Positions 3,841 through 52,546 of a stretch of 64,000 bases of DNA are shown in pieces; the stretch's first letter is position 1; each line of letters begins with the position of its first letter. Under the pieces are notes generated by a model. That model did not search any database. It saw nothing but the letters and a program-made list of their open reading frames with translations, and was not told the origin of the DNA. The DNA comes from Candidatus Oxydemutatoraceae bacterium. GTDB taxonomy: Bacteria; Pseudomonadota; Gammaproteobacteria; Poriferisulfidales; Oxydemutatoraceae. The stretch lies in NCBI GenBank assembly GCA_965218975.1, contig OZ244717.1, forward strand, positions 338,347 to 402,346. The letters run 5' to 3'. The position numbers and the translations under genes are program-made.

Positions 3841-5814
<1,974 letters not shown>

Positions 5815-5846
5815 CAAGAATCTCATTTAAGTTTCTTGAGTTAACT

Positions 5847-8036: not shown

Positions 8037-8521
8037 GCGCATAGAACTGTTGCCGAGACGAGCGTGTGAACACCTGCTATGGTGGCGCCCTAATTTGATT
8101 TTCCCTTTACAGGTTCCAAAACCCCTTTTGGCTATAATAGATACTATTATTAACGTATTAACGGCATCCTCGCGAGGACGATTATGGTCGGAGCTATCAA
8201 GCTCGGATCAGTTGGTTATGGACGCAACCAAGTAAACCGGAGTGTTTTTGTCGTTTGCCACCGAAACAGACTGATCATTGGACAACAATCGGAAAATCTG
8301 GTGAAAAAATATTGATTTACCAACAGGATATTGTGAAATATATACTAATTAGATTAGAAGAGGGGAATTTCGGCAATTCTTATCTAGTATCGGCTCGGGC
8401 GAAAATGATTCAGAGCGATGTCTTTTACGGAGTAATGAAAAGCCTTGCGAGAAAGAAAAAAGGTTGCCGGTCACGCTATCGTGATTGGTCGAAATAAAAC
8501 CCGTCGATTGCGCTTAGCGCA

Positions 8522-10243: not shown

Positions 10244-10247
10244 GACA

Positions 10248-10538
10248 TTGGAAGAACATCTTTATGTCATTGCTTATGACATTTCCGATCAAGCAAGGGG
10301 GCGCCTGATATTCAAACTGCTGCATGGTTATGGGGAATGGTTGCAAATGTCTGTCTTTCAATGCCGGCTATCCCGTCGTCGTCATGCGGAATTGATTGCC
10401 ATGCTGGACGAAATTATCCACCACACGGAAGATCATGTTATGCTGATGGACCTGGGATTAGCGGATTCGGTTAAACCGAAAATTGTAAGTCTAGGCAAAG
10501 GTTTTCAACCGGTGGAAAGGGAACCGATTATTGTCTGA
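10248..10538 (+). CDS. cas2: Cas2
   Basis: LYVIAYDISD....R......L..YGEWLQMSVFQCRL is the Cas2 beta1/ferredoxin-fold signature. The likely TTG start at 10248 lies just after the cas1 stop (10241-10243); the listed ORF starts at 10215. Confidence 0.85.
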   Translation: MEEHLYVIAYDISDQARGRLIFKLLHGYGEWLQMSVFQCRLSRRRHAELIAMLDEIIHHTEDHVMLMDLGLADSVKPKIVSLGKGFQPVEREPIIV

Positions 10539-10749
10539 TGTTCTTCCGTTCTTCATAACTCCCGCGAGAGCCTAGGTGATGAACGTTTGTCCGGGCAGTG
10601 CTCGCATAAAAATGTTCTTTGACAATCAGTATCTTACAGGTGACATCTTGCAAAAAAAATACAAGAAACACGACAGTGTTATGATGCATTTAGACCTCTC
10701 GAAATGGCTTTCTATAATCTTTGCCAAACAATAGGTTATGGGATGTGCT
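10539..10749 (+). promoter_or_regulatory. CRISPR leader with a candidate promoter (TTAGAC 10690-10695, 17 nt spacer, TATAAT 10713-10718)
   Basis: An AT-rich 211 bp non-coding stretch lies between cas2 and the first repeat. A perfect -10 hexamer sits 32 bp upstream of repeat 1, with a weak -35 at 17 bp spacing. Confidence 0.5.
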
Positions 10750-13700: not shown

Positions 13701-15981
13701 CCCGCGTATTCCGTAGCTATATGCTACGGCCTCATTGAAGCTCTACGGTGATCTGACCGAGCACTTCCAACTCAGCGTATTCCGTAGCTATATGCTACGG
13801 CCTCATTGAAGCTACGCAGCGGTACGGCGTCTCGGAGCCGCACACTTGGGTATTCCGTAGCTATATGCTACGGCCTCATTGAAGCGAGGCAGCTTTGTCC
13901 ATTTGCTGGAGCCGCACGCGGTATTCCGTAGCTATATGCTACGGCCTCATTGAAGCCGGTGTAAAATCATCCATCAAAATAACGGTCTTGCTGTATTCCG
14001 TAGCTATATGCTACGGCCTCATTGAAGCTCATTGACTCGGGATATGGACGTCCTCGATTCTTTAGTATTCCGTAGCTATATGCTACGGCCTCATTGAAGC
14101 TATGCAAAAGATACCGAAGAATACAATAATTTGAAGTATTCCGTAGCTATATGCTACGGCCTCATTGAAGCTTTGAAGATCAATATGTATTCAATCGTTA
14201 AGTTGGGGTATTCCGTAGCTATATGCTACGGCCTCATTGAAGCACATTGGATAGTGCTGCGATTGAGCCTTTTATGAGAGGTATTCCGTAGCTATATGCT
14301 ACGGCCTCATTGAAGCCCATTCTCCAAAGCTGCCGCGAGAAACCCGTTCCCGCGTATTCCGTAGCTATATGCTACGGCCTCATTGAAGCCTCACTGCCTT
14401 CGTTTCCTTCCAGCATAATTACAGCGTATTCCGTAGCTATATGCTACGGCCTCATTGAAGCTATATTTTTTTTCTACATCTTCCATGTTTTATCTCCGTA
14501 TTCCGTAGCTATATGCTACGGCCTCATTGAAGCGCGGATGATAATTTGTGCAATTCCCTCATTTGCCTTAAGTATTCCGTAGCTATATGCTACGGCCTCA
14601 TTGAAGCCCGGAAGTTAAAGTCCCCATGTCCGCAGTTAAAGCGGAGTATTCCGTAGCTATATGCTACGGCCTCATTGAAGCGGCTCGGCAATTTCAGTCA
14701 TCAAATCTTTATAACTCGTATTCCGTAGCTATATGCTACGGCCTCATTGAAGCATGATGGTGTTTTAGCACCGTCATGAATGATGTTAAGTATTCCGTAG
14801 CTATATGCTACGGCCTCATTGAAGCTTGTTGCAGTATTTATTTTTATCTCGCTTGTCATGTTGTATTCCGTAGCTATATGCTACGGCCTCATTGAAGCTG
14901 GTAAGCACATTCGACTCAACCATGGCTTTCCTCACGTATTCCGTAGCTATATGCTACGGCCTCATTGAAGCTGTGTGGCGGAATGTCCCTTTTGGGTATA
15001 GTTTATCCGTATTCCGTAGCTATATGCTACGGCCTCATTGAAGCAGCGAAGAAGCCGATGAGGCAGGCGTATATATAGTGTATTCCGTAGCTATATGCTA
15101 CGGCCTCATTGAAGCGACCGCTGTAACTACGACCTGTCACATTACATAATGTATTCCGTAGCTATATGCTACGGCCTCATTGAAGCGGTGCTTTACTCAC
15201 GCATTCAAGGAATCCGGCGCATGTATTCCGTAGCTATATGCTACGGCCTCATTGAAGCAAATCTCCGTTGTTGTGGTGCCGGCAAGAGCGCCGGGTATTC
15301 CGTAGCTATATGCTACGGCCTCATTGAAGCAACCTTTGCATCTGGGGATAAAAAACAGTACTGGAATGTATTCCGTAGCTATATGCTACGGCCTTATTGA
15401 AGCATTGCAAATCATCCATATACGGATAAGGAAACAAAGTATTCCGTAGCTATATGCTACGGCCTCATTGAAGCTTTGGCTTCTATTGTTCTGCGCGGTT
15501 CGGGTACGCATGTATTCCGTAGCTATATGCTACGGCCTCATTGAAGCCCAACTATTTGGTCAACACCTATCAACCCAGAAATAAGTATTCCGTAGCTATA
15601 TGCTACGGCCTCATTGAAGCGACTCAACGCTAATGACGCATACGGCAAAGCCGGATGTATTCCGTAGCTATATGCTACGGCCTCATTGAAGCGGCGTTGG
15701 GTAAATCTCAGCTAGTGCGTAAAGTGCACGTATTCCGTAGCTATATGCTACGGCCTCATTGAAGCGATTTTCTAAGTCAGGAAGCTCCAACCCGCAACAT
15801 AGGTATTCCGTAGCTATATGCTACGGCCTCATTGAAGCAAGCCGCTGTTATATCGAGTGGTCAAGGAGTGAGTGGTATTCCGTAGCTATATGCTACGGCC
15901 TCATTGAAGCTTTTCGTTATTGGGACGCAAGTCATTCCAGGAGACGTATTCCGTAGCTATATGCTACGGCCTCATTGAAGC
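10750..15981 (+). CRISPR. CRISPR array: 73 copies of the 36 bp repeat GTATTCCGTAGCTATATGCTACGGCCTCATTGAAGC and 72 spacers of 35-38 bp
   Basis: I located every repeat start by hand: first at 10750, last at 15946, with periods of 71-74 bp. The repeat has an internal hairpin, CCGTAGC-TATAT-GCTACGG, and ends in ATTGAAGC. One variant repeat at 15368-15403 has C>T at 15395. The leader and cas2 lie at the 5' side. Confidence 0.97.
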
Positions 15982-16010: not shown

Positions 16011-16901
16011 TCAACGTTCACCACTGAATAAAGCCTCTTGAATGTCGCCTTGAATACAATTCTTCACGCCATTCGCATTTCTTTGTTTTGTATTTTTAAC
16101 AGGTTTCCTAAGTGGTTGCCCATTATGTTCAAGATACCCAAGAACTCTCCGCAAGCCAATTTCAACATGCTTTTGTGATCTTTCAATACCGATGCTTTTT
16201 CTACCTAATGTTCGTGCAACTGCATTAGTAGTAAATGCTCCTGCAAACGGGTCAAGAATTATATCTTCTTTATTTGAACTTGCTTGAACAATTCTTTGAA
16301 GAAGCGTTTCAGGTTTTTGGGATGGATGATCTTCATATTCATCCATCTTGTAACGTACTCGAGGAAAATACCAAACATTTCCTGGAACTTTTTTCGTATT
16401 ATAAATCGTTGGAATCTTTTTTCTGTAGTCAATAAGTTTACGTTTAGCCCCCGTTTTAGCTTCTATAGCAATTGTGTCAGCGTTAAAAGTGTAATTATCA
16501 AGATCTTTCACACAGAAAAGAATCGGTTCATACATGGAACCATAATATTTTTTCGCTTGCACCCCCGAACTATCATATGACCAAATAATTCTGCTAAGTA
16601 TGTTTATTCTCTTTCTCAATATAATATCTATGTAGGGCATAGCTTGGGTGCTTGTCATCACATACATAGAGCCTTGAGATGAAAGTTTATCAATACAAAG
16701 AGTTAACCATTTCTCACACCATTCAGCATACGCTTCATCAGAAGGCCATTTGTCATCAAATCCATCAAAGCGTTTCCCAATGTTGTAAGGGGGATCAGCA
16801 AATATCAAATCAATTGAATTATTAGCAATTTTATCGCGTAATACTTCTATTGCATCGCCTTGGTAAATGGCATGATTTTTTATTTCGTATTTTTTAATCA
16901 T
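16011..16901 (-). CDS. DNA methyltransferase, beta-class N6-adenine/N4-cytosine type (DPPY)
   Basis: Motif IV, IFADPPYNIG, lies near the N-terminus. Motif I, LDPFAGAFTTNAVA, lies near the C-terminus, giving the beta-class order. The start is 4 nt downstream of the IS1595 transposase stop. Confidence 0.8.
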   Translation of the reverse strand: MIKKYEIKNHAIYQGDAIEVLRDKIANNSIDLIFADPPYNIGKRFDGFDDKWPSDEAYAEWCEKWLTLCIDKLSSQGSMYVMTSTQAMPYIDIILRKRINILSRIIWSYDSSGVQAKKYYGSMYEPILFCVKDLDNYTFNADTIAIEAKTGAKRKLIDYRKKIPTIYNTKKVPGNVWYFPRVRYKMDEYEDHPSQKPETLLQRIVQASSNKEDIILDPFAGAFTTNAVARTLGRKSIGIERSQKHVEIGLRRVLGYLEHNGQPLRKPVKNTKQRNANGVKNCIQGDIQEALFSGER

Positions 16902-16905
16902 TAAA

Positions 16906-17826
16906 TCAAGCTACCAATTGTTCATAAGTAATCGTCTTCCCAACCATGGCCTTAAAGAGATCATCAAGTCTGTCCTGTGTATCACGTTTCACATTGCCTT
17001 CATTAAGTCTGAATGTAAACTCATTTACATATTGTTGACAATGCTTCTTGCTCCAATTGTGGTAAACACCATTGAAGCCACGTTTAATCACTGACCATAC
17101 AGATTCAACTCCATTAGTATGCGCCATCCCGTTAACATATTCTCTTGCTGAATGTTTTACGCTTTCATGCTGATAATAGTCGCCTCCAATATCTTTATAA
17201 CCCTTGTGGTCATCCGTATAAATGGTGGTACCCACTTCAATGTTAGCAAGAACAGCACTATGAATAGTAGCCTTGTCTTCACCTTCAACTGGCATAGCTT
17301 TTACACGGCCTTCCCGTTCTCTCATACCCAGCACAGCCTGCTTTCCCACAGTACCGCGTCCGGCCTTGAGTTTCTTATGAGAGTGTTTATTCTTTTCAGC
17401 CCTACCAATATAGGTGGCGTCCATTTCCACTTCACCACTCAAGGCTTCAAGATTGTTGCCGCAAGCTAAACGTAGCCTATGCAGCATGTACCAGGCTGTC
17501 GGATAGCTAACGTCCAGTTCCTTGCTTAATTGCATGGCGGAAATACCTTTACGGGCGGTCATAAGCAGATACGCTGCAAATAGCCACATACGGGCATCAC
17601 GCACCCTGTTATGTTCAAGTGGGGTTTCTGTGAAAGCATTGAAATATCCGCGACAATCGCCGCACCAATAACCTTTCTTGTAGTTCTTTTGCTTGGTGAT
17701 TCTGCCGGTACAGCCGCATTTGACACATACAGGCTTAGTTCCCCATCTAAGCTGCTCAAGCTTCGGCAAAAATGTTTTCAAGGGCAATTTCATAATTGGA
17801 CTCTTTTGGCGATAGACCCCGTTCAA
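16906..17826 (-). mobile_element. IS1595-family transposase gene (intact)
   Basis: The N-terminal zinc ribbon is CVKCGC....WCGDCRGYF. The ISXO2-like DDE core is TIYTDDHKGYKDI...HESVKHSAREYVNGMAHTNGVESVWSVIKRG..GVYHNWSKKHCQQYVNEF.FR. The probable start is MKLPLKTF at 17793. I could not define terminal inverted repeats confidently. Confidence 0.8.
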
Positions 17827-38136: not shown

Positions 38137-38673
38137 ATGATGGCATGGCGGCACGCAACACTTGGCTTCACTCTGGTAGAACTATTAATTACATTGACTC
38201 TGATCGCAATTGCATTAAACGGTGCGGTATACGGCTACCGTGACTGGCAGAAACGCACTTTGATTAGCGAACACTTAAACTTGTGGGTCAAGACTTTGCG
38301 CTTTGCTCGCAATTATGCGTTAATTTCAGGTAACGCAACGGTTCTTTGTCCGAGCTCAAGCATTGTCGGATGTAATGGGAACGATTATGCAAAAGGCTGG
38401 TTGGTCTTTGCAGAAAATTCTCATGGCGACGCGGGACGCTACGACAGCGAAGATCGCATCATTGCTCGCTCGGATGCTTGGCATTCCTCGCTAACATTAC
38501 ATAGCAATTTTAAAACGCCGGTGCGGTTTAACTCTTCGGGCAGAACCAATGCCAACGGGCGGTTTGTCCTCTGCATTGATCATGACCCCGGATTAATGCG
38601 CGGAATCTTTTTGATTCGTTCCGGACGGCTGCGTTTGACACGAAGCGGCGAACTCAACGAGTGTTTATCGTGA
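38137..38673 (+). CDS. fimT: Type IV pilus minor pilin, FimT/GspH family
   Basis: The prepilin N-terminus is GFTLVELLITLTLIAIAL. It is the first gene of a minor-pilin operon. ~178 aa. Confidence 0.7.
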   Translation: MMAWRHATLGFTLVELLITLTLIAIALNGAVYGYRDWQKRTLISEHLNLWVKTLRFARNYALISGNATVLCPSSSIVGCNGNDYAKGWLVFAENSHGDAGRYDSEDRIIARSDAWHSSLTLHSNFKTPVRFNSSGRTNANGRFVLCIDHDPGLMRGIFLIRSGRLRLTRSGELNECLS

Positions 38674-39176
38674 CGAACACGGCAAACCGCTTGCAGAAAT
38701 CAACATGCGGATTTGCTTTAGTGGAATTGCTGATCACTATTTTACTGCTAACGGTCGGTGTACTCGGCACTTTACATTTGCAACAATACGCCGCCATGAT
38801 AGAGCGTGATCTGCAATATCGCATTCGCGCAAGCGCCTTAATCGAAGACATCGTCCGCAAGATGGATGCGGCAGAACATCATGCCGATAATTTTTTAACC
38901 GGTTTCGGCGCACCGCCCGCAACTACTAATTGCTGGCAAACAAACTGCGGAGAAACTCAACGTCACCGCTTTCATCTCGCTCATTGGAAATGCCGCTTAG
39001 GGAGATGGCAAAATACAAGCGTTTGCCGCACCCGACTTCGCACTCGCGGATTACTGCCTTACGGTGACGGTGAAATTCAACGCGGCCATCAAACCTTGCG
39101 CATTGCCGTGCGCTGGCATGACAGTCGCCAACAGATACAAACACTGACCCACCATTATGTTCCGTTACATCCTTAG
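38661..39176 (+). CDS. pilV: Type IV pilus minor pilin PilV
   Basis: The prepilin N-terminus is GFALVELLITILLLTVGVLG. It lies between fimT and the pilW-like gene, with overlapping gene boundaries. Confidence 0.7.
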   Translation: MFIVTNTANRLQKSTCGFALVELLITILLLTVGVLGTLHLQQYAAMIERDLQYRIRASALIEDIVRKMDAAEHHADNFLTGFGAPPATTNCWQTNCGETQRHRFHLAHWKCRLGRWQNTSVCRTRLRTRGLLPYGDGEIQRGHQTLRIAVRWHDSRQQIQTLTHHYVPLHP

Positions 39177-40179
39177 CGCCAACAATCCTAAATTCTTAAG
39201 CATTGCGGGCACAGCTCTTCTCGAATGGATACTTGCCTCATTACTCGGGATTTTTCTGATAGTCGCATTAGAACGATTGTTTCAGACGATCGCTACCGAT
39301 CATAGCTTTAGGGAGGCACAATCCGCCGCGATAATAACGTTGGCAGTAACCGAGCAAACCGTCAGTAAACGCTTGCACCTTAGTACCGCGCTTCCTTGCG
39401 GTAACACCCCGGGACAAATCAACCTTGTGAACGACGGAAGCGCTCTCTATTGGCTTGACCTGTTTGCAAGTGCAAAACAAATACATCCCTACGATAGCGA
39501 GGAAGCATCAGCGATTCGTCGCCTCGGCACTGCTGCGGGCGAACGCGCCGCCGGCAGCGATGTATTAGTGATTCTCGCCGCACAACAACCGATTCGGGTT
39601 GTCACACACAATGTTGAAGAGGGCATATTAGTTTTAGCCGAAGCTTCCTTATTGCGGCCCGGTGAATTTGCGATCGTCTGCGACCCGCAAGTAACCGCGT
39701 TATTCCAAATCACCCGGCAATTTGATCAAGGGCAGCGATTGGCATATCGTGGTGGCGGCGTGTCGCCGGGCAATTGTGCAAACGATTTTGATATAAATCG
39801 GCCGTGTGCCCCGAACACTGCTTACATATTTTCCGACCACGCCTTGCTCACGGTGTTTGAACCGGCTGTTCTGTTTGTCGGGCAATCGCATCATCCCGGT
39901 CGTCGTTCACTTTATCGCGAACGGCTCAGTCTGACTCAATCCGGCGATGGCAACATTCGTGCCGGCATGCGCCGCGAGGAAATTATTGAAGGTGTTGAAA
40001 TTCTGCGTGCCCGCTCGCTAAGCGATAACGTGGTTGATTTTGGAATTGTCGCCGCCGCTCCATTACCGGTTGCCGACCTAACGCCCGCTTCCGTTCATTT
40101 GCTTGGCAGGGATGTTACATCATGGCTATCCGACCACGGAAGCTTATATGACGTAACGGAGTTCAGCGTTGCACTATAA
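39157..40179 (+). CDS. pilW: Type IV pilus assembly protein PilW-like
   Basis: The 340 aa protein has an N-terminal hydrophobic segment (TALLEWILASLLGIFLIVAL). The call rests on its position and size in the pilV-pilW-pilX order. Confidence 0.55.
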   Translation: MFRYILSANNPKFLSIAGTALLEWILASLLGIFLIVALERLFQTIATDHSFREAQSAAIITLAVTEQTVSKRLHLSTALPCGNTPGQINLVNDGSALYWLDLFASAKQIHPYDSEEASAIRRLGTAAGERAAGSDVLVILAAQQPIRVVTHNVEEGILVLAEASLLRPGEFAIVCDPQVTALFQITRQFDQGQRLAYRGGGVSPGNCANDFDINRPCAPNTAYIFSDHALLTVFEPAVLFVGQSHHPGRRSLYRERLSLTQSGDGNIRAGMRREEIIEGVEILRARSLSDNVVDFGIVAAAPLPVADLTPASVHLLGRDVTSWLSDHGSLYDVTEFSVAL

Positions 40180-40591
40180 ATATTTCATTGACCAATGTTT
40201 GGCGTATCCTCATTCGAAAACTCGTGGCAGTAGCCTGATTATTACTTTAGCATTACTGTTGATTTTGACACCTTTAGCGCTCGGCAGCATGTACCGATTG
40301 CAATATCAGTCTCAAACCTTATATGCGCTAGACAACAAACGCCGCCTGCAAACCGAAGTCAGGCAGCAACTCGTTCTAGCCGCCGCAATTGCGCAGACGC
40401 TGCCGGCAAATATCTCAGTAGCCAATTCAAATTGGCAAATCACCGCCTTAGCCAATACCGCCTCAACTCAAACCATCAGTTATTTTCAGCTCAGCGGGCA
40501 AGTTGAAAATGCTTCCGGTCGCGTTACCGCTCACGCCCTGTACCGACGCGGCATTGATCCGGCAATACGGATGTTTCAGTTTGCTCAATAG
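40169..40591 (+). CDS. PilX-like minor pilin (by position)
   Basis: The 140 aa protein has an N-terminal hydrophobic helix (SSLIITLALLLILTPLALG). It overlaps the pilW stop. Confidence 0.45.
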   Translation: MHYKYFIDQCLAYPHSKTRGSSLIITLALLLILTPLALGSMYRLQYQSQTLYALDNKRRLQTEVRQQLVLAAAIAQTLPANISVANSNWQITALANTASTQTISYFQLSGQVENASGRVTAHALYRRGIDPAIRMFQFAQ

Positions 40592-41006
40592 CTCGAATAA
40601 CGCGAAATACGGTTGCCGTATTGCAGCCTTCTCTTTGCTTGAACTGCTGTTTGCAATGGTCATCAGCGCCATTATTTTATCGTTGGCGATCAACACTTAT
40701 GATCGTTATCAAATAAAAATTCAATATTTAGACGGGCGCAATAAACTGCTTGAAATCATGCAGAAACAGCATCACCATTTTGCCGAACATTTAACTTTCA
40801 CCGACCAACTCGAATCTCTAGGGTTTTCCTCGATTGATCATGCCGTCTTATCCGATCACCAACATTTTCGCATCCGTGCCGCACCTTGCCAAACCGTGAT
40901 TGCTCAATGTGTCCGCTTAACCGCAACTGCAACCGATCCCACAAACGATGTTGACACTTTAACTTTGGACTCCATGGGGCGCCGAACTCCAGCAGATATC
41001 TGGTAG
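40581..41006 (+). CDS. Minor pilin, PilE/FimU-like
   Basis: The prepilin-like N-terminus is AAFSLLELLFAMVISAIILSLAI. The likely TTG start at 40581 is in frame with the listed ORF 40503-41006. Confidence 0.55.
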   Translation: MLNSSNNAKYGCRIAAFSLLELLFAMVISAIILSLAINTYDRYQIKIQYLDGRNKLLEIMQKQHHHFAEHLTFTDQLESLGFSSIDHAVLSDHQHFRIRAAPCQTVIAQCVRLTATATDPTNDVDTLTLDSMGRRTPADIW

Positions 41007-41070
41007 ATTGAACAAGTGAAAACAGGATTTATTAGTTTAAGGTAATTGCTTAATTTTTTATATATTTTGC

Positions 41071-41144
41071 ACGATGCCACCCTAAATGGGATTCTTGAAT
41101 AGCTTCGGGGGAAGCGTTCGGCAGAAAGCACCGATCCGAATGTT
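41071..41144 (+). repeat. Solo fragment of the mosaic-repeat tail: the arm is inverted relative to loci 26964-27040 and 52470-52546, and the core is in the same orientation
   Basis: ACGATGCCACCCTAAATGGGATTCTTGAA..GCTTCGGGGGAAGCGTTCGGCAG is the reverse complement of the tail arm. It is followed by the shared core AAAGCACCGATCCGAATGTT. Confidence 0.85.
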
Positions 41145-41162
41145 ATGGTCCTATACATATTG

Positions 41163-41191
41163 TTGACATGCTGTTGTAAAGTCAATATACT
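41163..41191 (+). promoter_or_regulatory. Sigma70-type promoter (TTGACA, 17 nt spacer, TATACT) upstream of the lipoprotein gene
   Basis: A perfect -35 lies at 41163-41168 and a near-consensus -10 at 41186-41191 with exactly 17 nt between them. The element is 85 nt upstream of the ATG at 41277. Confidence 0.6.
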
Positions 41192-41276
41192 TTGACGCAA
41201 ACCAAACAAGATGGCGCAACGCTTAGTGGCGTTACGGCGTTTAATAAAATACCCCGAATTCGAAGGAATGTAAGAT

Positions 41277-42803
41277 ATGAAAGAAATAACCCCGCGTCGT
41301 TTCCAGCGTGCCAGATTAACCGCCTTTCTCCTAATCAGCGGCTTTGCGTTAAGCGGTTGTTTTGATTCGGGCGGAAGCGGTTCAAGCGGCGCTTCGGTTG
41401 AGCGGTTTTTATACACGAGTAGCAATAGCAGTAGCGGGAATGAAATTATACGGATGGGTATTGCTTCCGACGGCACACTCAGTAGTAGCACCGTAACTCG
41501 AATACCGACCCATGGTTTTGGCGATGCCGACGATGACGACTTTGACGGGCAACATTCGTTGCATATCGTGCATAATTATCTGCTTGCCGTCAATGCCGGG
41601 GAAGATCCTGCATTTTCGGACATGAAATTTAATGGCGAGTTTGCCGCTCGCACCAGCGGCAACGGAACTATATCGGTATTTCGTTTTGAAGATGACGCTT
41701 TAACCCAAGTGCCGCAGGGAGAGGATTCTGCAAGCAGTAATGTGGAGTCGCACGGAATCAGACCGGTGAGTCTGACATCGGCAATAATCGACGATGTAAC
41801 ATGGGTATTAGTCGCAAACCAATACGACAATCCATTTTGTAAGTGGTTTGACGGCAAGGAGCCGCAATGTCCTGCTATTCCGTCGCCGCGTGAGGATGAC
41901 AAACCGAGTATTGATGCGTTTAAATTCAATCCCGAGGACGGACAATTGACTTATTCCGGCGAAATGGACCTTTTTAATTTCGGCGACAACGGCGGGCCGT
42001 CACAAGTTTCTTTTAGTCCGGACCGGAGCAAAGTTGCGGCAACGATGTGGGGAATACCGTTTCTAAGTTCCACAGGAGTGGAAACGATAGATATATTGCG
42101 GAGTACAACTGTCAATACTTTCCGTGAAGGTGGGGTGTTCGTATGGGATGTGGAAGTACAGGATTCCACTCAGGGTTCCAATTTGATGCTTATCAAGCGC
42201 CGCTTTTGGTTTGAACCGGGGGTTTCGGGTAGTATCGGGTTTGTTTGGAGTCCGGATAGCCGGTATCTTTATGTAACAAACTTCAATGTCCCGATCAACG
42301 GGGATAGGAACTTCAGCGTAGTTTCGTTGGAAGATACGTCTTCGGAACTGACTCCTGTCGATCAGTCGGGAACACGCGACAATGACGGCGCGATGCAGGT
42401 GCGACATGCCGATGAGGCCTGTTGGGCATGGCTTGAACCCGACGGGAGCAGGCTTTATACGGCAAGTTTTAGCGGAAACATCGTGTCGTTCTTTGACGTG
42501 ACACCCGAGACCGGCATGATTGATCACAATTCGTATTATCCTCGTCGTGACCAAGCGCTCCCATTTCCGATCGCTCCTTCTTTAAGAATATCCGAAGCTC
42601 CGGATACAAAGGATATTTACGTTTTATCGAACGGAACATTTCTCTATGTTTCCGGCGCATTAAATTCGCACACGATTTCAATTTATGCGGTGAACAGCAA
42701 GGGAACTTTAGTGGAAATAAATTCCTCGCCGTTTAGCGTCCCGTTTCCGGATGCAAGGACGGATAAGCGCGAAGAAGCATTTTTGGGTCTTGTCGGCTAC
42801 TAA
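41277..42803 (+). CDS. Lipoprotein with a beta-propeller (lactonase-like 7-bladed) repeat pattern
   Basis: The lipobox is LISGFALSGC. Recurrent blade-like segments are present (TISVFRFEDD, VSFSPDRSKV, VWSPDSRYLYVTNF, DGSRLYTASFSGNIVSFFDV, FLYVSGALNSHTISIYAV). Confidence 0.65.
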   Translation: MKEITPRRFQRARLTAFLLISGFALSGCFDSGGSGSSGASVERFLYTSSNSSSGNEIIRMGIASDGTLSSSTVTRIPTHGFGDADDDDFDGQHSLHIVHNYLLAVNAGEDPAFSDMKFNGEFAARTSGNGTISVFRFEDDALTQVPQGEDSASSNVESHGIRPVSLTSAIIDDVTWVLVANQYDNPFCKWFDGKEPQCPAIPSPREDDKPSIDAFKFNPEDGQLTYSGEMDLFNFGDNGGPSQVSFSPDRSKVAATMWGIPFLSSTGVETIDILRSTTVNTFREGGVFVWDVEVQDSTQGSNLMLIKRRFWFEPGVSGSIGFVWSPDSRYLYVTNFNVPINGDRNFSVVSLEDTSSELTPVDQSGTRDNDGAMQVRHADEACWAWLEPDGSRLYTASFSGNIVSFFDVTPETGMIDHNSYYPRRDQALPFPIAPSLRISEAPDTKDIYVLSNGTFLYVSGALNSHTISIYAVNSKGTLVEINSSPFSVPFPDARTDKREEAFLGLVGY

Positions 42804-44420: not shown

Positions 44421-44844
44421 CGAACGTACTAGATATTTAAAAATATACACCGAGAGAATCTAAAATATATTAAATGGCGTCGTGCCGGTTCCGTCCGAAG
44501 AAATAACGGATGCCAATCTCGGTTATTCACCGTCTTTGGACTTCGTTTTTATCCCACGGCACATCGGAGAGGAAATAACGGATGCCAAGCTCGGTGATTC
44601 ACCGGGAATACGGTAATGATAGATTGGCTTACATTAGAGTCACCACAGAGTCACCACTAACTCATGGAGGGGCATTTTCCTTGTCGCAGGCTGCACAATT
44701 CACTAAGAATGCCGTCGCCGGATTGTGGCTGATCTTCTCCCACAAATTGAACACTATGCGAAGGGAAGCTCGGTGCAAAATAGCTCCGGAGGAAACGAAC
44801 CTCCCGAATAATCGGCCGTGTCTCCTTGAAGTTCAAATCAGAAA

Positions 44845-47433
44845 ATGCCGCACCTTTTTGAAGCATTAGAACATTCTGCTGCCAGCTGGCGTAAGAAGGG
44901 TTATCCTTGTGACGCCTATCCGCTCATAGGCGAAATTCTTGCTTACCAAACGGAAAAGCAGGAGGACAGGTCAACCCCGAAGTTTCTGCGCGAACCCCAA
45001 TTCCTTGCCTTGGAGGTTTACTGGTATATCCGCCTTATACGGGAAACCCCTCATATCATAGACCTTTACAAGCATTATCACGGCAGCAATAAAGAAGATT
45101 TTTTTGATGCGCTTGGAATCTCAGTATCAAGAGATGCTTTGGAGTTTGCAGAAATAGACGGAATGATTGAAAAAATTAAAAGGGATGAGGGTTTTGTCAA
45201 AGACAAAAGAATTCAAGCGTTGCACGAAGCCGTCAAATTAGACTATCCGAGCTACATTTTTGCTTTGGCTATGGGTGCGGGCAAAACCGTTCTGATAGGG
45301 ACGATTATCGCAACCGAGTTTGCAATGTCGCTGCGTTATCCCAAAGATAGATTTATGAAAAATGCCCTCGTTTTTGCTCCGGGCACGACAATCATAGAAA
45401 GTTTGCGCGAACTCAGCGATATATCTTATGAGCAGATTTTGCCGCCCGGCCTTAACCGCGATTTCCTTGCTAATTTGAAGATTGAATTTCCGGGCAAGGA
45501 AAAAGACATACAGGCGCAGAGAAACAGCAGTTATAACTTGATTGTTACCAATGTTGAAAAAATCAACCTGCGTGCCAGGCAGCGGGAGAATCAAACACAA
45601 TTATCTTTTGAACACGAAGAAGCACAGGCGAATCTACGGCTTCAAAAGATCGCAAGCCTGCCCGGCCTCGGGGTTTTTTCAGATGAAGCGCACCACACAT
45701 ACGGAAACACCTTTGACAAACTCAAACGCGTGAGGGAAACCATCAACTACATACACGAGCAGACTGAAATAGTGGCGGTGATCAACACCACCGGAACGCC
45801 TTACTATAAAAAGCAACCCTTAAAGGAGGTGGTTGTCTGGTACGGGCTTGGCGACGGCATCAAAGATAATATCCTCAAAGGCCTCAATAACGGCATTCAT
45901 CTATACGATATCGGAGAGCAGCCGGAGGAAGAGGTTTTTAGGGACATCATTCGAGAATTTTGGGAGGGCTACGGAAATGTTTCTCTTCCCAACGGCGCAC
46001 CGGCAAAGATTGCCTTTTATTTCAAAACGCAACAGCATCTGGTAAGTTCAAAACAACAAATAGAGAAGGCGATGACGGAAATCGGGCAACCTGTTTCCCA
46101 TATATTAGTTAATACACAACAATCCGATGCAGCGCAGATCGACGAGTTTAAGCGTCTCAATAATCCCGAAACCCAGAAGCGAGTTATTCTGTTGATCGGC
46201 AAAGGGGTTGAAGGTTGGAACTGCCCCAGCCTGTTTTCCTGCGCACTGATAAAGGAGCAGACGAGTAAGAATTACGTTTTGCAAGCATCAACGAGATGTT
46301 TGCGGCAGGTTCCGGGCAATAGCCTTCCGGCGAAGATATTTCTAGATTCCGTCAACGCAACGATTCTAGACAAAGAATTACAAAATAACTTCGGCACCGA
46401 TCTTGATAGACTTAGCGGGGAAACGGGAGACAAAGAAACCATCACTCTGCGTATTCTTAAAACAGAACTGCCGAAACTGGAAATCACCCGCACTGTTAAA
46501 AGAGCTATAAGAAAAGGGGAAATAAACAGAAATATACGTTTGGAGAAACCGAAGGCGCAAAAACTGCCCGTTGTATTGCGCAGCATTTGCACCCCTGATT
46601 TCAGCGGTCCAAAGGAAATATTAATGCCGACAGGACAAACGAAGGAGCTACCGGCGGGAAGACGTGTTACCGGTTGCCATACTGCCGCTTGGAGAATCGC
46701 TTCACGATACCATGTACCGGTTCTACCGATCTTGAAAAAACTCAAAAGCTTTTATCCGAAAGGAGTAATGCCGGATAGTCATTTATACGGGCTTTTTCAG
46801 CAGGTTGAACGGCAACAAACAAGTTACACAACGGTTGAAGAAAAAGTAACCGAGGCGATGGCGTTGATCCGAGTTCAGGATGAGAACGGAGAAGGCATCT
46901 TTGATAAGGATGAAAAGGGGGTTTTTGTTCACCGTTTGCGGTTGCTTAAAAGGACTGTTGAACGTATGGAAGAAGGCGGATTGTTTGCAGAGAGGGAAAA
47001 TTATGAGGACCAGCACGAGTTGAGTTTTCACTATACCCCCTACAACTTTGACAGCAAACCGGAACGTTCCCTGTTCCGAAGGATTTTATCCATGTTGAAT
47101 ACAGAACCTTATGACGTGGAAGTGTTTCTGTTCACCGGTGGGCTAACAGACCCGAAGAAAACTGATTTCCATTTTGAATATCTGGGCGAAGACAAGCGGT
47201 ATCATCGCTACTTTCCGGATTTTGTGATTGCCAAAAAGACCGGTGAGTTTTATATTGTCGAGGTGAAAGAAGATAAGCGCGAGGATAAAACTGTGGAGGC
47301 CAAGAAAAAGGCAGTTGAGAAACTGCAGAATTTGCCAACGAACAAGTTCGGATACCATATTATCTATGCTTCTACAGCGACGCTAGGCGTGAGAGAAACC
47401 ACGCCGATTCAGAATTGGATACAAAAAAACTAA
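44845..47433 (+). CDS. Type III restriction enzyme Res-like subunit (SF2 DEAH helicase plus C-terminal PD-(D/E)xK nuclease)
   Basis: Walker A is ALAMGAGKTVLIG and the DEAH box is VFSDEAHHTYG. The helicase C-terminal part includes QASTRCLR. The C-terminal nuclease motif is YFPDFVIAKKTGEFYIVEVKEDK. Confidence 0.8.
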   Translation: MPHLFEALEHSAASWRKKGYPCDAYPLIGEILAYQTEKQEDRSTPKFLREPQFLALEVYWYIRLIRETPHIIDLYKHYHGSNKEDFFDALGISVSRDALEFAEIDGMIEKIKRDEGFVKDKRIQALHEAVKLDYPSYIFALAMGAGKTVLIGTIIATEFAMSLRYPKDRFMKNALVFAPGTTIIESLRELSDISYEQILPPGLNRDFLANLKIEFPGKEKDIQAQRNSSYNLIVTNVEKINLRARQRENQTQLSFEHEEAQANLRLQKIASLPGLGVFSDEAHHTYGNTFDKLKRVRETINYIHEQTEIVAVINTTGTPYYKKQPLKEVVVWYGLGDGIKDNILKGLNNGIHLYDIGEQPEEEVFRDIIREFWEGYGNVSLPNGAPAKIAFYFKTQQHLVSSKQQIEKAMTEIGQPVSHILVNTQQSDAAQIDEFKRLNNPETQKRVILLIGKGVEGWNCPSLFSCALIKEQTSKNYVLQASTRCLRQVPGNSLPAKIFLDSVNATILDKELQNNFGTDLDRLSGETGDKETITLRILKTELPKLEITRTVKRAIRKGEINRNIRLEKPKAQKLPVVLRSICTPDFSGPKEILMPTGQTKELPAGRRVTGCHTAAWRIASRYHVPVLPILKKLKSFYPKGVMPDSHLYGLFQQVERQQTSYTTVEEKVTEAMALIRVQDENGEGIFDKDEKGVFVHRLRLLKRTVERMEEGGLFAERENYEDQHELSFHYTPYNFDSKPERSLFRRILSMLNTEPYDVEVFLFTGGLTDPKKTDFHFEYLGEDKRYHRYFPDFVIAKKTGEFYIVEVKEDKREDKTVEAKKKAVEKLQNLPTNKFGYHIIYASTATLGVRETTPIQNWIQKN

Positions 47434-48389
47434 TGGAACGCCACTCATTCTCGCCCGACAACCGAACAGGCCGGAAAGTTTTCCATGGACTGTATTACCG
47501 CAGGCGCATCCTGCTTGCCATTCTGGCGCAAAGAAAGAGGCGCATAGAGAAACTGCGTTTGCAGAAGCTGCTCTTCCTTTTCACTCAACAGCAAGAAAAG
47601 CCGGCATACTATTTTCTTCCTTATAAATATGGAAGCTACTCATTTCAGGCCTCCGAAGACGCAAGAATACTCGCTTGCCATTACGGTTTGATAATAAATA
47701 GCCGGGACGACTCTTATTCCTTGAACAAAAAAAACGTTAAAGAAGAATATTTTGCACTAAAAGACACGGACCACGATCGGCTGGCACATGTATATAAGCA
47801 ATACGGACCTCTCTCAACAAAGGAGTTAATTTACCAAGTTTACAAACAGTATCCGTACTATGCGGTCAGAAGTGAAATAATTGGTGAGCAGCGCTTCAAG
47901 GCGTTACATAAGAGCATAAAGAAAGAGCAGCTACAATTCCAAACAAGCAACGGTCGCCGTTGTCTCTACACAATCGGTTATGAAGGCATAAGCATAGAGC
48001 AATATATTTCCCGCCTGATGAGAAACGGCATATCCGCTCTGGTGGATGTCAGACGCAACCCCTTCAGCATGAAGTACGGATTTTCCAAAACTCAGTTACG
48101 GCGTATCACTAAAAAATTTGACATAGAGTATTACCACATACCTGAGCTCGGGGTCGAAAGCGACCGTCGCGTGAACTTGACGACCCGCGCCGACTATAAT
48201 CAACTCTTCAGAATGTATCGTAGATCATTGCGGCAAGAGGAGGAAAGTCTGCAATGTATTCAAACTATTTTGCGTGAACATTTGCGTACGGCGCTGACGT
48301 GCTTTGAAAAAAAACACGAGTGGTACCATAGAGGAATTTTATCCGAAGCAATTCATGCTCAATGCGGTATAACCGTAAAGCACTTTTGA
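47415..48389 (+). CDS. DUF488-domain protein with an uncharacterised ~170 aa N-terminal extension
   Basis: The C-terminal half is YTIGYEGISIEQYISRLMRNGISALVDVRRNPFS.KYGFSK..L........IEYYHIPELG ... ALTCFEKKHEWYHRGIL, the DUF488 pattern with W-Y-HR in place of the usual C-HR. The N-terminal part (LQKLLFLF...PYKYGSYS) is unassigned. The gene overlaps the res stop. Confidence 0.65.
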   Translation: MDTKKLMERHSFSPDNRTGRKVFHGLYYRRRILLAILAQRKRRIEKLRLQKLLFLFTQQQEKPAYYFLPYKYGSYSFQASEDARILACHYGLIINSRDDSYSLNKKNVKEEYFALKDTDHDRLAHVYKQYGPLSTKELIYQVYKQYPYYAVRSEIIGEQRFKALHKSIKKEQLQFQTSNGRRCLYTIGYEGISIEQYISRLMRNGISALVDVRRNPFSMKYGFSKTQLRRITKKFDIEYYHIPELGVESDRRVNLTTRADYNQLFRMYRRSLRQEEESLQCIQTILREHLRTALTCFEKKHEWYHRGILSEAIHAQCGITVKHF

Positions 48390-49007
48390 AAGGCGTGGGA
48401 ATCCAAAAAATAAAGGCAAAACAGTTTACAGATTTTTCTCATGCGCCTATTCCAAACCCGGAACGTCAAAAATACCAAGCAAAGAGAGAGAACATTCTGA
48501 ATAGTCGGAAGCAGGGGTCGCTGATAGATGATGGCCTGAGAGATGCCGAGCTGGTATCTGCCCCCGACTATCGTTTCTACTATCACTTTGACGATCTAAA
48601 CGGCAAAAACAGTAAAATGATGATAGCAGATTGGGAAATACAAGCGTTATACAGAAATTGTTTGCGAGGGAAAAATAAGCAACAAGCGCTTGAGGATGTG
48701 CGCAAAAAATACTCTGGCGGGCCGACAGACTCGAACAAAACCGATTTCCATTTTTGAATATCTAGGCGAAGACAAGCAGGATCATCGCTACTTTCCGGAT
48801 TTTGTGATTGTCAAAAAGACCGGCGAGTTTTATATTGTCGAGGTGAAATCGAAAGATGAGCGCGGGGATGAAACCGTAGAAGCAAAGAAGAAAGCGGTGG
48901 AAAAGTTACAAAATCTACAAGCTGATAAGGTTAAATATAATATCATTTACACAAAGACGAACACAATAGGGGTTGAGGACATTGACATCAATACGATTGT
49001 GGATTAG
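48362..49007 (+). pseudogene. Frameshifted gene whose 3' part duplicates the Res C-terminal PD-(D/E)xK domain
   Basis: ORFs 48362-48757 and 48690-49007 join if one T of the T5 run at 48751-48755 is removed. The paralogous site at ~47170 has T4. The joined product ...GGPTDSNKTDFHFEYLGEDKQDHRYFPDFVIVKKTGEFYIVEVK...VEAKKKAVEKLQNL parallels Res ...GGLTDPKKTDFHFEYLGEDKRYHRYFPDFVIAKKTGEFYIVEVK...VEAKKKAVEKLQNL. Confidence 0.7.
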
Positions 49008-49022
49008 GTAGGAGTCGGATGA

Positions 49023-49893
49023 ATGCGACCACTTGATGAGTATATCAAATCTCACCTGAATGATTACATTAAAGAAATCGGTGAGGCATTGGGAGGGGTT
49101 GACACAATGTCAATAGTTAGCCCGATTATTCCCGGTGTTGATCAAAAAGTTAGAAATGTTATTGATATGAAGCAAGAGAAAAAATCCGCAATCGCTGTGG
49201 TTCTACAGACTCCTGGTGGCGTAGTTGAAATTGTTGAAAGGATGGTTGAAGTAATCAGAAATTTTTATACTGAAGTAAGTAGTAGTGATAGTACCAGACC
49301 GGGCAATGTCTGCCGGAACTGTTTTTACGTTGAGTGCAGACAGAATAATGATGGACTATTTTTCTCGATTGGGTCCGATTGACCCACAAATTGTTAAAGA
49401 CGAAAAACTTGTACCCGCTCTCTCTTACTTGAATCAGTATGAAATTTTGAATAAAAAAGCTAAACAGGGCCAACTCACCACGGCAGAGTATGCCATGCTT
49501 GACAAACTTGATTTGGGTGAATTGTATCGATTTGAGCAAGCCCGCGAACTCTCCATAGAACTTCTCAAGAAGTGGCTTTTTACATACAAATTTAAAGATT
49601 GGAGAAAGACAGAGAGTAGAAAACAGGCGGTTACAGAAGAAATGAAAGAGGAGCGTGCCGAAGAGATTGCTCAAAAATTAAATGATACAAACAGATGGCA
49701 TTCGCACGGACGAGGAATAGATATTTTCACTTTAAGGGAAGAATTAAATTTGAGAATTGAAGACTATTCGGAAAACAAAAAATTAAGCAAATATATACAG
49801 AATTACTATAATCTTCTAATTGATTATTTGGAACGAGAGAGGGTGGGTTCTTTCGTTCACACGGAGGAATATTTCTCGGAGGGATATTTTTAG
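49023..49893 (+). pseudogene. ClpP/SppA-fold serine protease (SDH_sah-like), split by a 1 nt frameshift
   Basis: ORF 49023-49382 (..VLQTPGGVVEIVERMVEVIRNFYTEV) and ORF 49285-49893 (VVIVPDRAMSAGTVFTLSADRIMMDYFSRLGPIDPQI..) join if one A at 49277-49278 (GAAGTAAGTAGTAGTG) is deleted. The MSAGT...LGPIDPQ pattern fits that family by recollection. Confidence 0.6.
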
Positions 49894-50088
49894 ACATGGG
49901 GGAAAAATAAATCGACTGGAGAAAATTCCATTTAGTCAGTTGTCCAAAAACAATCCGAAAATATCAACATCTGTTGTTACCCAACATCGTGAGTTGGAGG
50001 AAAAATTGAAAAACATAGGTGTGCGTAAAAAAGCTCGCTACACGCTTTCTCCCCCACTTGGCGAGACCATTAATCTATCAAAAATAGT

Positions 50089-51810
50089 TTGAAGTCTCTA
50101 AAAATCACCCCAGTTAAAGGTCGCCCGATGCTACACTGGATCGGTAAGAAGCCGCTGGATGTTGTCCGCCATTTTCCGGCGCAGTTATGCGAGAGTATCG
50201 GCATTGAAAACCCGCCTGTTGAGCCGTCGCACAAGAAATTTATTAAAAGCGATTACAACCTGCTCTTTCACGGCGACAACAAAGAAGTTCTTTCCTCTCT
50301 TTTGATTGCCGGGTTTCGGGGCAAGATAGATCTGATTTACATTGACCCGCCGTTTGATTCCGGCGCGGATTATGTCCGCAAGGTGACGTTGCGCGGGCAG
50401 TCTGCGAAACTTGCGGGTGAGGGGCATACTTTTATTGAGCAGGTGCAATACGAAGACATTTGGGCCAATGATAACTATTTGCAGTTTATGTATGAACGAC
50501 TGATTCTGATGCGCGAGTTGTTGAGTGATAAGGGAAGTATTTATCTGCATTGCGATTGGCACAAAAGCCACCATCTGCGGTTTTTATTGGATGAAGTATT
50601 TGGTGCGGAAAACTTTATAAATGAGATTGTTTGGTATTACAAAGATGCATCGGGAATTCTTAAGAAAGGTTTTAGAAAAAAGCACGACGGCATTTTTATT
50701 TATTCTAAGAGTACAGATTTTTATTTTGACGTAGATTCTGTTCGTCAGGAGTATGGAGATTCAACGAAAAAAGCGGCAGAAACAGGAACATTTTCTTTTG
50801 GCAGACCTACAAGGATTAATCCTTTGGGGAAGTATCCCGATGATGTTTGGGAAATAGCTATAATTAACAGTCAAGCAAAAGAAAGACTCAATTTCCCCAC
50901 CCAAAAACCCGAAGCACTTTTAGAGCGTATTATCAAAGCCTCCAGCAACGAAGGTTCCATCGTCTTGGACTGCTTTTGCGGCAGCGGCACAACCGCCGCA
51001 GTCGCCGAAAAGCTGGGACGGCGCTGGATTATGGCGGACTTGAACAAAGGCGCGATTCAAACGACCATCAAGCGATTGCAAAGTGTTATCAAAGAAAAGA
51101 ATGGCGACCTTGCGGAAAAAAACGGACGCGGGTTGATTCATTATCGGGTCAACAACTACGATTTCGCAAAGCAGGCCGAACTCAAGAAAATCATCGTCTC
51201 TAAATACGGTATTCAAACAGACCACAAGGATTTGTTCTTTGACGGAACGGCCGACGGCCGGTTGGCAAAGATTACCGATTTGGACAAGCCGCTGACGCGG
51301 TTGGATATTCAGATTATCAAAGACGAAATTGCCGATAACCGGCCGGACGAAACACGACACATCATCGTTTTCTGTAATGGTTCCGAGTTGGAATTGATCA
51401 AAGAGCTTAACGAAGAAATAAGACCGATCAATAAAATTAGCATCTGCGATATCCGGCAGGACGGAATGATTACCGATCAGCTGGCGCAAGCGGAGATTAA
51501 AATTACGAAAAGAGGCAAAAAGGCGATTATCAAAATTGAAGATTACATCAGCCCTACGATACTTGCCCGACTGGAGATTGACCGCAGTTTGTTTAATGAG
51601 CAGGTCGAAGATTTCCGATCGCAAATAGATTGCGTATTGATTGATACCAATTACAACGGCAAGGATTTCAGAATAACGGAAAGCGACTTGCCTGAGAAAA
51701 AGACCGGTCTCATCAGAGGGGAATACACACTGAACTTGCCCCGAGCAGGCGTCAAAGTGGCGGTAAAAATCGTGGATATGCTCGGAGAGGAAGTTTTGGC
51801 GATTAAGTAG
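50089..51810 (+). CDS. Adenine-specific DNA methyltransferase, beta-class (type III Mod-like)
   Basis: Motif [16 protein letters not shown], precedes motif [38 protein letters not shown] lies between them. The 573 aa protein has a C-terminal extension. Confidence 0.8.
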
Positions 51811-51911: not shown

Positions 51912-52546
51912 CTTTGTGTTCGGTGTGGGGTTGTCGGTGGATTGTGCCGGATTGTCGGCGGATTGTTGGCGGATTGTTGGCAAAGTGCCTGTCGTCCATG
52001 ACGCGACTTAGTTCTGTCAACAAGCCCCAGCCCCGACGTCCTTGTCGGGTCGTTCGCCGCTGAAAACCGTTCGGTTTTCCGGGCGCGTCTCACCCTGTCG
52101 TCCATGGCGAGACTTGGTTCTGTCAATGAACCCCAGCCCCGACGTCCTTGTCGGGTCGTTCGCCGCTGAAAACCGTTCGGTTTTCCGGGCGCGTCTCACC
52201 CGTTTTGTGTTTGGTAGCAGATTATTGGCAAAGTGCTTGGTGCAGGTTTGTCGGCGGATTGTGCCGGGTTGTTGGCAAAGTGCCTGTCGTCCATGACGAA
52301 ACTTAGTTCTGTCAATAAACTCCAGCCCCGACATCCTTGTCGAGTCGTTCGCCGCTGAAAACCAGTAGGTTTTCCGGGCGCGGCTCACCCAGCCCCGACA
52401 TCCTTGTCGGGTCGTTCGCCGCTGAAAACCGATCGGTTTTCCGGGCACGTCTCACCCGGCAACGGACAGAAAGCACCGATCCGAATGCTACTGCCGCACG
52501 CTTCCCCAGAAGCTCTTCAAAAATCCCATTTAGGGTGGCATCGTAC
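51912..52546 (+). repeat. Mosaic intergenic repeat cluster, copy 3: head, two units, second head, full and truncated units, tail
   Basis: The family and orientation match 26561-27040. The tail AAAGCACCGATCCGAATGCT...CCCATTTAGGGTGGCATCGTAC runs 52470-52546. It is followed by TTGGCA (52553-52558), a 17 nt spacer and TATATT (52576-52581). Confidence 0.9.

Follow-up and report, generated by a model that had tools for sequence, protein, structure and literature searches.

The nesting of defence genes inside modification-based systems was described by Payne, Hughes, Fineran and Jackson in 2024 as ‘guilt-by-embedding’ (bioRxiv 10.1101/2024.01.29.577857). The host systems in that work are Hma, BREX, DISARM and type I restriction-modification (R-M), with type III R-M not among them, and the word ‘recombination’ is absent from its text; the PADLOC-DB candidate (PDC) systems, the class to which the PDC-M19 genes discussed below belong, were also derived there (bioRxiv 10.1101/2024.01.29.577857). 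Nesting in R-M, BREX and similar operons has already been used to discover anti-phage systems, and its origin is unexplained in the work that we have read. Here we describe a locus at 44.8-51.8 kb of a 64,000-nucleotide stretch, referred to as the window, from the genome of a Candidatus Oxydemutatoraceae bacterium (assembly GCA_965218975.1, contig OZ244717.1, positions 338,347 to 402,346 of the forward strand), in which a Res-like helicase-nuclease gene and a Mod-like methyltransferase gene enclose a series of other genes. We propose, with a probability of roughly two in three, that the locus arose by the fusion of two units, one running Res-M19A-M19B and onwards and the other ending in a Res 3′ segment, an SDH protease, a small open reading frame (ORF) and Mod, within a type III-like res-mod operon family that collects anti-phage cassettes between its two genes.

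The locus comprises eight ORFs arranged head to tail on the + strand. The first, res (44845-47433), is intact and encodes an 862-aa protein with an SF2 helicase and a C-terminal PD-(D/E)xK nuclease (Pfam ResIII, E=4e-8), and the last, mod (50089-51810), is likewise intact and encodes a beta-class N6/N4 DNA methyltransferase; the original prediction, made from the sequence before any database search, had placed a Res-like and a Mod-like gene at exactly these positions. The 2,655 bp between them are occupied by ORFs that all lie on the same strand (47433-50092): an intact PDC-M19A gene (47433-48389), whose product combines a divergent Panacea-like N-terminal domain with DUF488; a PDC-M19B remnant (48362-48715), fused to the final ~99 codons of a res allele other than the resident one (48716-49007); a pseudogene of an SDH-type ClpP-fold serine protease (49023-49893); and a small ORF of ~65 aa that travels with the protease (49896-50092). 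The four intervening elements that had been listed from the sequence all exist, although what had been read as one gene for a second nuclease is in fact two ORFs on a truncated, frameshifted M19B, and the protease gene is also frameshifted, both of which had been overlooked. The G+C content of the locus is 0.38-0.46, as against 0.52-0.56 in the flanks and 0.48 in the whole window. The shared orientation and tight spacing of the genes would be consistent with co-transcription; promoter and terminator scans of the locus gave counts not above those in shuffled sequence and do not inform the operon structure.

Central to the proposed fusion is the repeated 3′ end of res. The last ~99 codons of the gene (47137-47433, the native Res end) recur at 48716-49007, 1.58 kb downstream, and this repeat is far beyond chance. 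The copies align over a first block of 39 nt with 85% identity (47137-47175 against 48716-48754) and a second of 97 nt with 95% identity (47172-47268 against 48752-48848), a segment over which orthologues of other genomes are 78-87% identical. From there to the stop codon the identity of the two copies is 61% in DNA, within the 46-64% that separates the window res from its orthologues in this region. In protein terms, the last 99 residues encoded by copy 2 are 70% identical to those of the resident Res and 55-69% identical to those of Res from other genomes (63-69% with the exception of L004, at 55%; L numbers denote the related loci surveyed below). Because copy 2 and the resident Res differ to the same degree as the resident Res and the alleles of other genomes do, the alignments indicate that it derives from a different res allele and not from a recent local duplication. 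Copy 2 ends 16 nt before the gene for the SDH protease, which in the related loci L090 and L091 lies 7 nt behind an intact Res. The predicted direct repeat of the nuclease domain is thereby confirmed, and the suggestion that it marks recombination between two res alleles is supported both by the divergence of copy 2 and by the protease that adjoins it.

The same comparison bears on a purely internal origin of the repeat, in which the res 3′ end would have been duplicated in tandem or by unequal crossing-over and would then have diverged, with no outside allele. The 97-nt tract speaks for such an origin, its 95% identity lying above the range of orthologues, as does locus L001, where a remnant 96% identical to the locus's own Res would fit local duplication. 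Outside the tract, however, the copies are no closer in DNA or protein than alleles of different phyla, and the Res-M19A and Res-SDH arrangements occur independently elsewhere; we consider an internal origin unlikely. Under the two-unit fusion, the tract would be best explained if gene conversion had later acted between the two copies of the res 3′ end. A comparison of the Res C-terminus with the rest of the locus, made for 79 loci, revealed a second copy of the locus's own C-terminus in only one other.

At the upstream edge of copy 2 lies the junction 48715/48716, where res sequence from codon ~764 follows the M19B residues KKY. The two repeat blocks are offset by one base, copy 2 carrying an extra T (CCATTTTTGAA) at ~48750, in CCATTTT[T]GAA. 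The resulting +1 frameshift splits copy 2 between ORFs 48362-48757 (131 aa) and 48690-49007 (105 aa), the latter of which holds the PD-(D/E)xK domain, and the catalytic D...ExK residues are retained. When the frameshift-corrected M19B::Res3′ chimera was searched against 5.8 billion sequences, no protein was found to span both of its halves, and every match to the nuclease half was a C-terminal fragment of a Res homologue. A small-nuclease family made up of the short nuclease-domain proteins was considered and rejected, since these are such fragments. The M19B protein's own C-terminus was also considered as a putative distant homologue of the Res nuclease domain (TDLHLFLG...HR aligned with TDFHFEYLG...HR), a resemblance that is unproven.

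The frameshift site itself, CAT TTT TGA A (48745-48756), resembles that of RF2 (prfB), in that a +1 slip of tRNA-Phe by the stop codon would restore the Res-like frame. This raises the question of whether the cargo consists of functional accessories of the R-M enzyme, PrrC-like guardians or regulators, with an M19B-nuclease fusion made by +1 ribosomal frameshifting at UUU-UGA. The perfect re-pairing of tRNA-Phe in the +1 frame and the catalytic residues kept in copy 2 would favour this idea, as would the same-strand, tightly packed cargo with its TAATG overlap between res and M19A and the precedent of PrrC in EcoprrI. Yet M19B has also lost ~115 internal codons and its own C-terminus, the fusion architecture is unmatched among the 5.8 billion proteins, the SDH protease carries an independent frameshift with no stop codon adjacent, and M19B is eroded in a different manner in L089. 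Given the other lesions of the gene, the likeness to the RF2 site is probably a coincidence.

The state of the individual cargo genes is uneven. The DUF488 protein (318-324 aa) matches the PADLOC PDC-M19A profile over its full length (E=9e-94) and Pfam DUF488 with E=3e-22, is 52-63% identical to full-length homologues and most likely starts at the ATG that overlaps the res stop codon (TAATG, 47431-47435). Pfam SocA_Panacea (PF13274) is matched by 8 of the 43 M19A family members, with a best E of 8e-7 and no match for the window protein at E<=0.01, and there are weak matches of M19A to the C-terminal region of the DarG antitoxin. The M19B remnant (PADLOC PDC-M19B, E=1e-19) covers positions 128-227 of the 269 in the profile; alignment with the intact M19B of L092 and L090 shows that, out of 269-275 aa in the full protein, it preserves approximately the first 11 codons and residues ~122-228, with an apparent internal deletion of ~115 codons and the last ~40 codons gone. 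The window thus lacks a complete two-gene PDC-M19 system, M19A being whole and M19B truncated, fused and frameshifted. The decay of M19B beside an intact M19A, in both the window and L089, might fit a toxin that has been lost while its antitoxin was kept.

In the SDH protease gene (Pfam SDH_protease, E=2e-11; NCBIfam Clp_like_SDH), a +1 frameshift that falls within GTAAGTAGTAGTG, in the interval 49278-49285, leaves ORFs 49023-49382 (119 aa) and 49285-49893 (202 aa); the intact 283-aa protease of L090 matches its product with 64-72% identity, the match being split over two frames. The small ORF that follows is intact, without a family match in Pfam, PADLOC or NCBIfam, and its product is 53% identical to that of the 71-aa ORF located after the SDH protease in L090 and L091. 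Two of the four cargo genes are thus pseudogenes. Our reading of the literature yielded nothing specific on the function of DUF488, on PDC-M19, 8xMP or SDH Clp-fold proteases, or on type III R-M systems with embedded genes.

Such lesions could in principle stem from metagenome assembly or long-read base calling, as a chimeric join of strains or as homopolymer errors. The source is one single contig of 2.08 Mb, one of the two frameshifts sits in a run of T, and the SDH gene of L004 is likewise fragmented (62, 143 and 125 aa), all of which would agree with an artefact. However, an assembler joins strains in shared sequence, and at 48715/48716 the parental sequences have no similarity; the SDH frameshift lies outside any homopolymer; similar scars are present in other assemblies, and the arrangement of L090 and L091 was recovered twice from different data. 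Because 72 of the 73 repeats in the CRISPR array of the window score identically, which speaks for base-level accuracy of the assembly, and the long housekeeping ORFs are intact, we take the frameshifts as probably real, with some reservation as they come from a single assembly, and judge an artefact to be improbable.

The wider family, which is widespread, sizeable and well conserved, places the arrangement in context. About 3,400 Res homologues are detectable, many of them from metagenome-assembled genomes, and we gathered 95 related loci, in 80 of which both genes were located; a scan of genome contigs with the single Res protein gave 6 loci, three of them from sponge-symbiont lineages or marine taxa. 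In 77 of the 80 loci, res precedes mod on one strand. The two genes abut or overlap (<=150 bp) in ~45 loci, are 150-600 bp apart in 12 and are separated by an insert of 0.6-4.4 kb in ~20. The res-mod order is therefore the family norm and the insert a recurrent state, and the inverted gene order, which the original prediction had taken as a sign of rearrangement, is no such sign. Within the closest clade, whose Res proteins are 70-74% identical to that of the window, every locus carries cargo except L006, which also has mod before res.

The content of the slot between res and mod differs from locus to locus. TIR-domain genes are found as ThsB-TIR, TIR and 8xMP in L001, as TIR, SLATT, TIR and 8xMP in L002, as TIR_2 in L003, as a TIR-like effector in L005, as TIR, DUF2281 and 8xMP in L095 and as two TIR genes with 8xMP, an IS1595 transposase and more in L093. 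The fragmented SDH protease occupies the slot in L004, four ORFs (one matching PDC-S05) in L007, and DUF5343/PDC-M34A with Ymh in L094. More distant loci hold DUF6978 with DUF1828 (L057), Fic (L031) or DUF1016/YhcG (L050), and DUF5131 also occurs among their cargo. The L093 slot contains ORFs of 283 and 71 aa that were considered as a further SDH cassette on account of their matching lengths, but tblastn with the L090 protease missed L093. Sets of three to four small slot ORFs without a Pfam match lie in L007 (12663-14727) and L089 (9275-10643), with PDC-S05 (L007) and a weak LmuC (L089) as the only PADLOC matches; they are candidates for undescribed defence modules.

Both halves of the window arrangement are met in this survey. 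In L089, Res is followed by M19A, with overlapping stop and start codons, and then by further genes. In L090 and L091, the order is Res, an intact SDH protease (283 aa), a 71-aa ORF, M19A, an intact M19B (269 aa), DUF6978, DUF1828, more genes and Mod, so that ~8.4 kb (5805-14250 in L090, and the same in L091) with at least five cassettes separates res from mod; the L090 insert also includes a second, divergent methyltransferase (35% identical to the window Mod) and a Lipase_3 gene. In L092, M19A and M19B stand alone between housekeeping genes. It is because Res-M19A, with its TAATG overlap as in L089, and Res-SDH, with a short gap as in L090, each occur elsewhere that we read the window locus as a fusion of two units. 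The occurrence of DUF488 and the protease with res and mod in other genomes, proposed earlier as a check, was borne out in L089, L090/L091 and L004, with both behaving as optional, movable modules.

These comparisons also return us to the accessory hypothesis. The cargo is wholly different among loci whose Res proteins are 70-74% identical, and most family members have none. Together with the lesions described above, this makes functional accessories very unlikely, and it is also the reason why the extra genes seem better described as embedded, optional defence cassettes than as fixed accessories of the R-M enzyme. The original prediction had offered a choice between a rearranged or decaying system and one with functional accessories, and this choice is supported in part. 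The R-M pair is not decaying, its Res keeping the invariant residues and its Mod aligning end to end with homologues; decay is confined to two of the four cargo genes, and the extra genes are not fixed accessories.

Nesting as such is known, but scars that reveal its origin are less common; some that compare with that of the window are found in a handful of relatives. In L001, the last 51 codons of the locus's own Res are repeated with 96% identity between two TIR genes. In L089, the ORF P0259 (8827-9219) encodes the N terminus of Mod (residues 2-25, beginning MLQWVGKKPLDV) followed by Res residues 745-859, and is thus a Mod5′::Res3′ joint between two cassette sets; M19B of this locus (7941-8036) is cut to its last ~32 codons, with M19A intact, and a single ORF separates it from P0259. 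In L090 and L091, as seen in two separate assemblies, one Mod 5′ remnant lies behind the M19 cassette and a second behind the DUF1828 cassette, and another lies upstream of Mod in L006. Beyond these loci, in the 286-aa protein P0248, encoded on a contig of 2.64 Mb, an HpaB-like N-terminus (Pfam PF11794) leads into the final ~190 residues of a Res homologue, as if a res locus in decay had become fused to a metabolic gene.

The scars are also informative about site-specific entry, whereby an integron or integrative element would have used the res 3′ end as its attachment site and carried a replacement 3′ end. A duplicated 3′ end of the target gene is the classic mark of elements that integrate into gene ends, and the cassettes are stacked in a single orientation. 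The junction codons nevertheless differ between loci (745, 764 and 812 in res; 25 and ~38 in Mod), no integrase was found in the locus or its flanks, the sole mobility gene among the annotated slots is the IS1595 transposase of L093, and no repeat is shared by the cassette boundaries of the window. We regard site-specific integration as highly improbable; the varying junctions and the missing integrase argue instead for recombination anchored in host genes, with one illegitimate end.

We propose the following sequence of events for the window locus. Incoming DNA bearing the first unit (Res, PDC-M19A, PDC-M19B) would have recombined with a resident second unit (Res, SDH protease, small ORF, Mod). 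The first crossover would have been homologous, inside the conserved res gene, and the second join illegitimate, linking M19B codon ~228 to res codon ~764 with loss of the sequence between. An equivalent route would be for the units to have integrated in tandem and for the inner mod and res then to have been deleted. Either way, the products would be an intact Res and Mod (presumably a methylation-dependent restriction system), an intact M19A, a dead M19B::Res3′ chimera and an older SDH cassette that is now frameshifted, on which gene conversion between the res 3′ copies may later have acted. Such a pathway would fit homology-facilitated illegitimate recombination, in which a homologous anchor and an illegitimate joint insert foreign DNA and leave a truncated piece of the recipient. 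This process was reportedly described in natural transformation by de Vries and Wackernagel in 2002.

Several observations weigh against the two-unit fusion or limit its reach. No donor or recipient genomes with the two units separate in the same lineage were found, the pathway being read from end products, and the species representatives that were searched do not include the window's own genome, so that there is no insert-free close relative for comparison. The frameshifts are supported by one assembly only. G+C content separates the two units poorly (0.43-0.45 against 0.38-0.41, with Mod at 0.45), Res has no detectable similarity to any characterised type III Res, and the case for R-M activity is made from sequence. 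Furthermore, scars occur in only four or five of the ~30 cargo-bearing loci; the scarless exchanges could be clean double crossovers or the work of another mechanism, which limits how general the claim can be. We therefore put forward only tentatively, at somewhat less than even odds, the broader view that conserved host genes of the res-mod family act as recombination anchors, through which res-cargo-mod units fuse and foreign defence cassettes are taken up and stacked, turning the operon into a small defence island. Anchored capture would then have left the Res 3′ and Mod 5′ remnants as its footprints. If this were general, it would supply a mechanism for the embedding of defence systems, so far described as a pattern only, and would open a type III-like family that has gone unrecognised to the search for defence genes.

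Turning to the host genes themselves, Pfam ResIII spans Res residues 123-319, and the C-terminal PD-(D/E)xK module has the form FPDF...EVK. The best 120 of the ~3,400 hits are 61-74% identical to Res and, like the protein itself, nearly all full length in a family of ~864 aa, from which it follows that the window Res is complete and its nuclease domain native. All residues invariant in 48 homologues are kept (G144-G146-K147-T148, D280-E281-A282-H283, Q480/R484/R487 and D792/E806/K808). The relationship of Res to named enzymes is distant. Searched against the PDB by sequence, Res had no match at E<=1, whether as a single sequence or as a profile of 18 sequences, and the EcoP15I entry that Mod matches was no exception. 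None of the PADLOC models, restriction enzymes included, matches it, and the NCBIfam BPTD_3080 family is its only named relative, scoring 53 bits where the cut-off is 800. An AlphaFold model of Res reached a mean predicted local distance difference test score (pLDDT) of 73 and a predicted TM-score of 0.59. Foldseek comparison of this model with the PDB ranked LlaBIII (type ISP), RadD and HsdR at the top, and EcoP15I Res was outside the top 50, for a model with a mean pLDDT of 73. As these were generic SF2 helicase matches, with TM-scores of ~0.25, the fold could not decide membership of type III.

Mod (573 aa) is more readily classified. Pfam N6_N4_Mtase (E=6e-57) covers residues 80-326, with DPPF (IYIDPPF) upstream of FCGSGTT, that is, motif IV before motif I, as in the beta class. 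Its best PADLOC model is MTase_III (5e-77), and EcoP15I Mod (4zcf_A) is matched in the PDB with 1e-20. Residues 2-573 align end to end with homologues at 63-71% identity, and translation probably begins at the ATG at 50128. No hsdS-like gene was found in the locus by Pfam, PADLOC and NCBIfam searches. Since the motifs are intact and the pairing is strict across the family, Res and Mod are predicted to form a restriction system that is type III-like in design and probably active. The earlier label ‘type III-like’ thus suits the architecture and the EcoP15I-like Mod; it is less apt for Res, with no match among solved structures or PADLOC models, and for the res-mod order.

Beyond the cassettes, some features of the window deserve mention. 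Within the 424-bp spacer 5′ of res lies a 36-nt direct repeat (44497-44604; copies 92% identical and 72 nt apart), possibly a regulatory element or the edge of an island, and just 3′ of mod, where the G+C content climbs again, are four direct repeats of ~129 nt (51916-52457) together with shorter repeats of the TTGTCGGCGGATTG type. Defence genes also abound in the window far from the R-M locus. A CRISPR-Cas locus at 1087-15981 contains a Cas3-like helicase (1087-3840), Cas_GSU0053 (4714-5814), Cas_GSU0054 (5811-8036) and a Cas4-Cas1 fusion (8522-10243), followed by an array (10750-15981) of 73 repeats of 36 nt, 72 of which have identical scores. On the - strand at 16011-17826, a second, short N6_N4 DNA methyltransferase (296 aa) adjoins an IS1595-family transposase (306 aa). 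Upstream of the island, 38137-42803 carries a type IV pilus minor pilin-like gene (GspH/FimT-like, with an N-terminal methylation motif) and its neighbours, where ORFs 40169-40591 and 40503-41006 overlap in different frames.

How does this locus relate to systems already described? Its two genes, the lack of a specificity subunit, a beta-class Mod matching that of EcoP15I and a Res composed of an N-terminal SF2 ATPase and a C-terminal PD-(D/E)xK nuclease are shared with the type III enzymes EcoP1I and EcoP15I. It departs from them in gene order, type III operons running mod then res, and in a Res without detectable homology to characterised type III Res proteins, its helicase fold being nearest to LlaBIII, RadD and HsdR. 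As with PrrC in the type IC EcoprrI hsd locus, accessory defence genes lie co-oriented within an R-M operon; PrrC, however, is a fixed partner held inactive by the R-M enzyme that it guards, whereas the cargo here varies by locus and is half decayed. Panacea (PanA/SocA) toxin-antitoxin pairs offer a further parallel, through the SocA_Panacea domain in a minority of M19A family members and the partner M19B that has decayed in two loci with M19A intact, although the window M19A falls below the Panacea threshold and carries DUF488, and the toxicity of M19B is only putative. Unlike integron-like arrays, the locus has neither an integrase nor boundary repeats, and its junction codons vary. The pattern at 48715/48716, in L089 and in L001 is like that left by homology-facilitated illegitimate recombination, here known from the end product only.

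The closest parallel is with the embedding described by Payne et al., in that the cassettes are nested on the same strand inside a methylation-based system, vary among homologous hosts and also occur outside them (L092). The differences are that the host here is a two-gene, type III-like family whose Res has no PADLOC match and that remnants of the host genes mark the boundaries of the cassettes. The scars in the window and in four or five relatives point to recombination anchored in host genes, and the embedded cargo of the family (TIR/8xMP, PDC-M19, PDC-M34, the SDH protease with its small ORF and sets of unannotated ORFs) is largely unmined. For the window genome, the R-M pair looks functional from its sequence and half of the cargo is dead. 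In sum, the locus exemplifies, in partly decayed form and with unusually legible scars, the known embedding of defence genes, and does so in a host family that earlier work has not covered.

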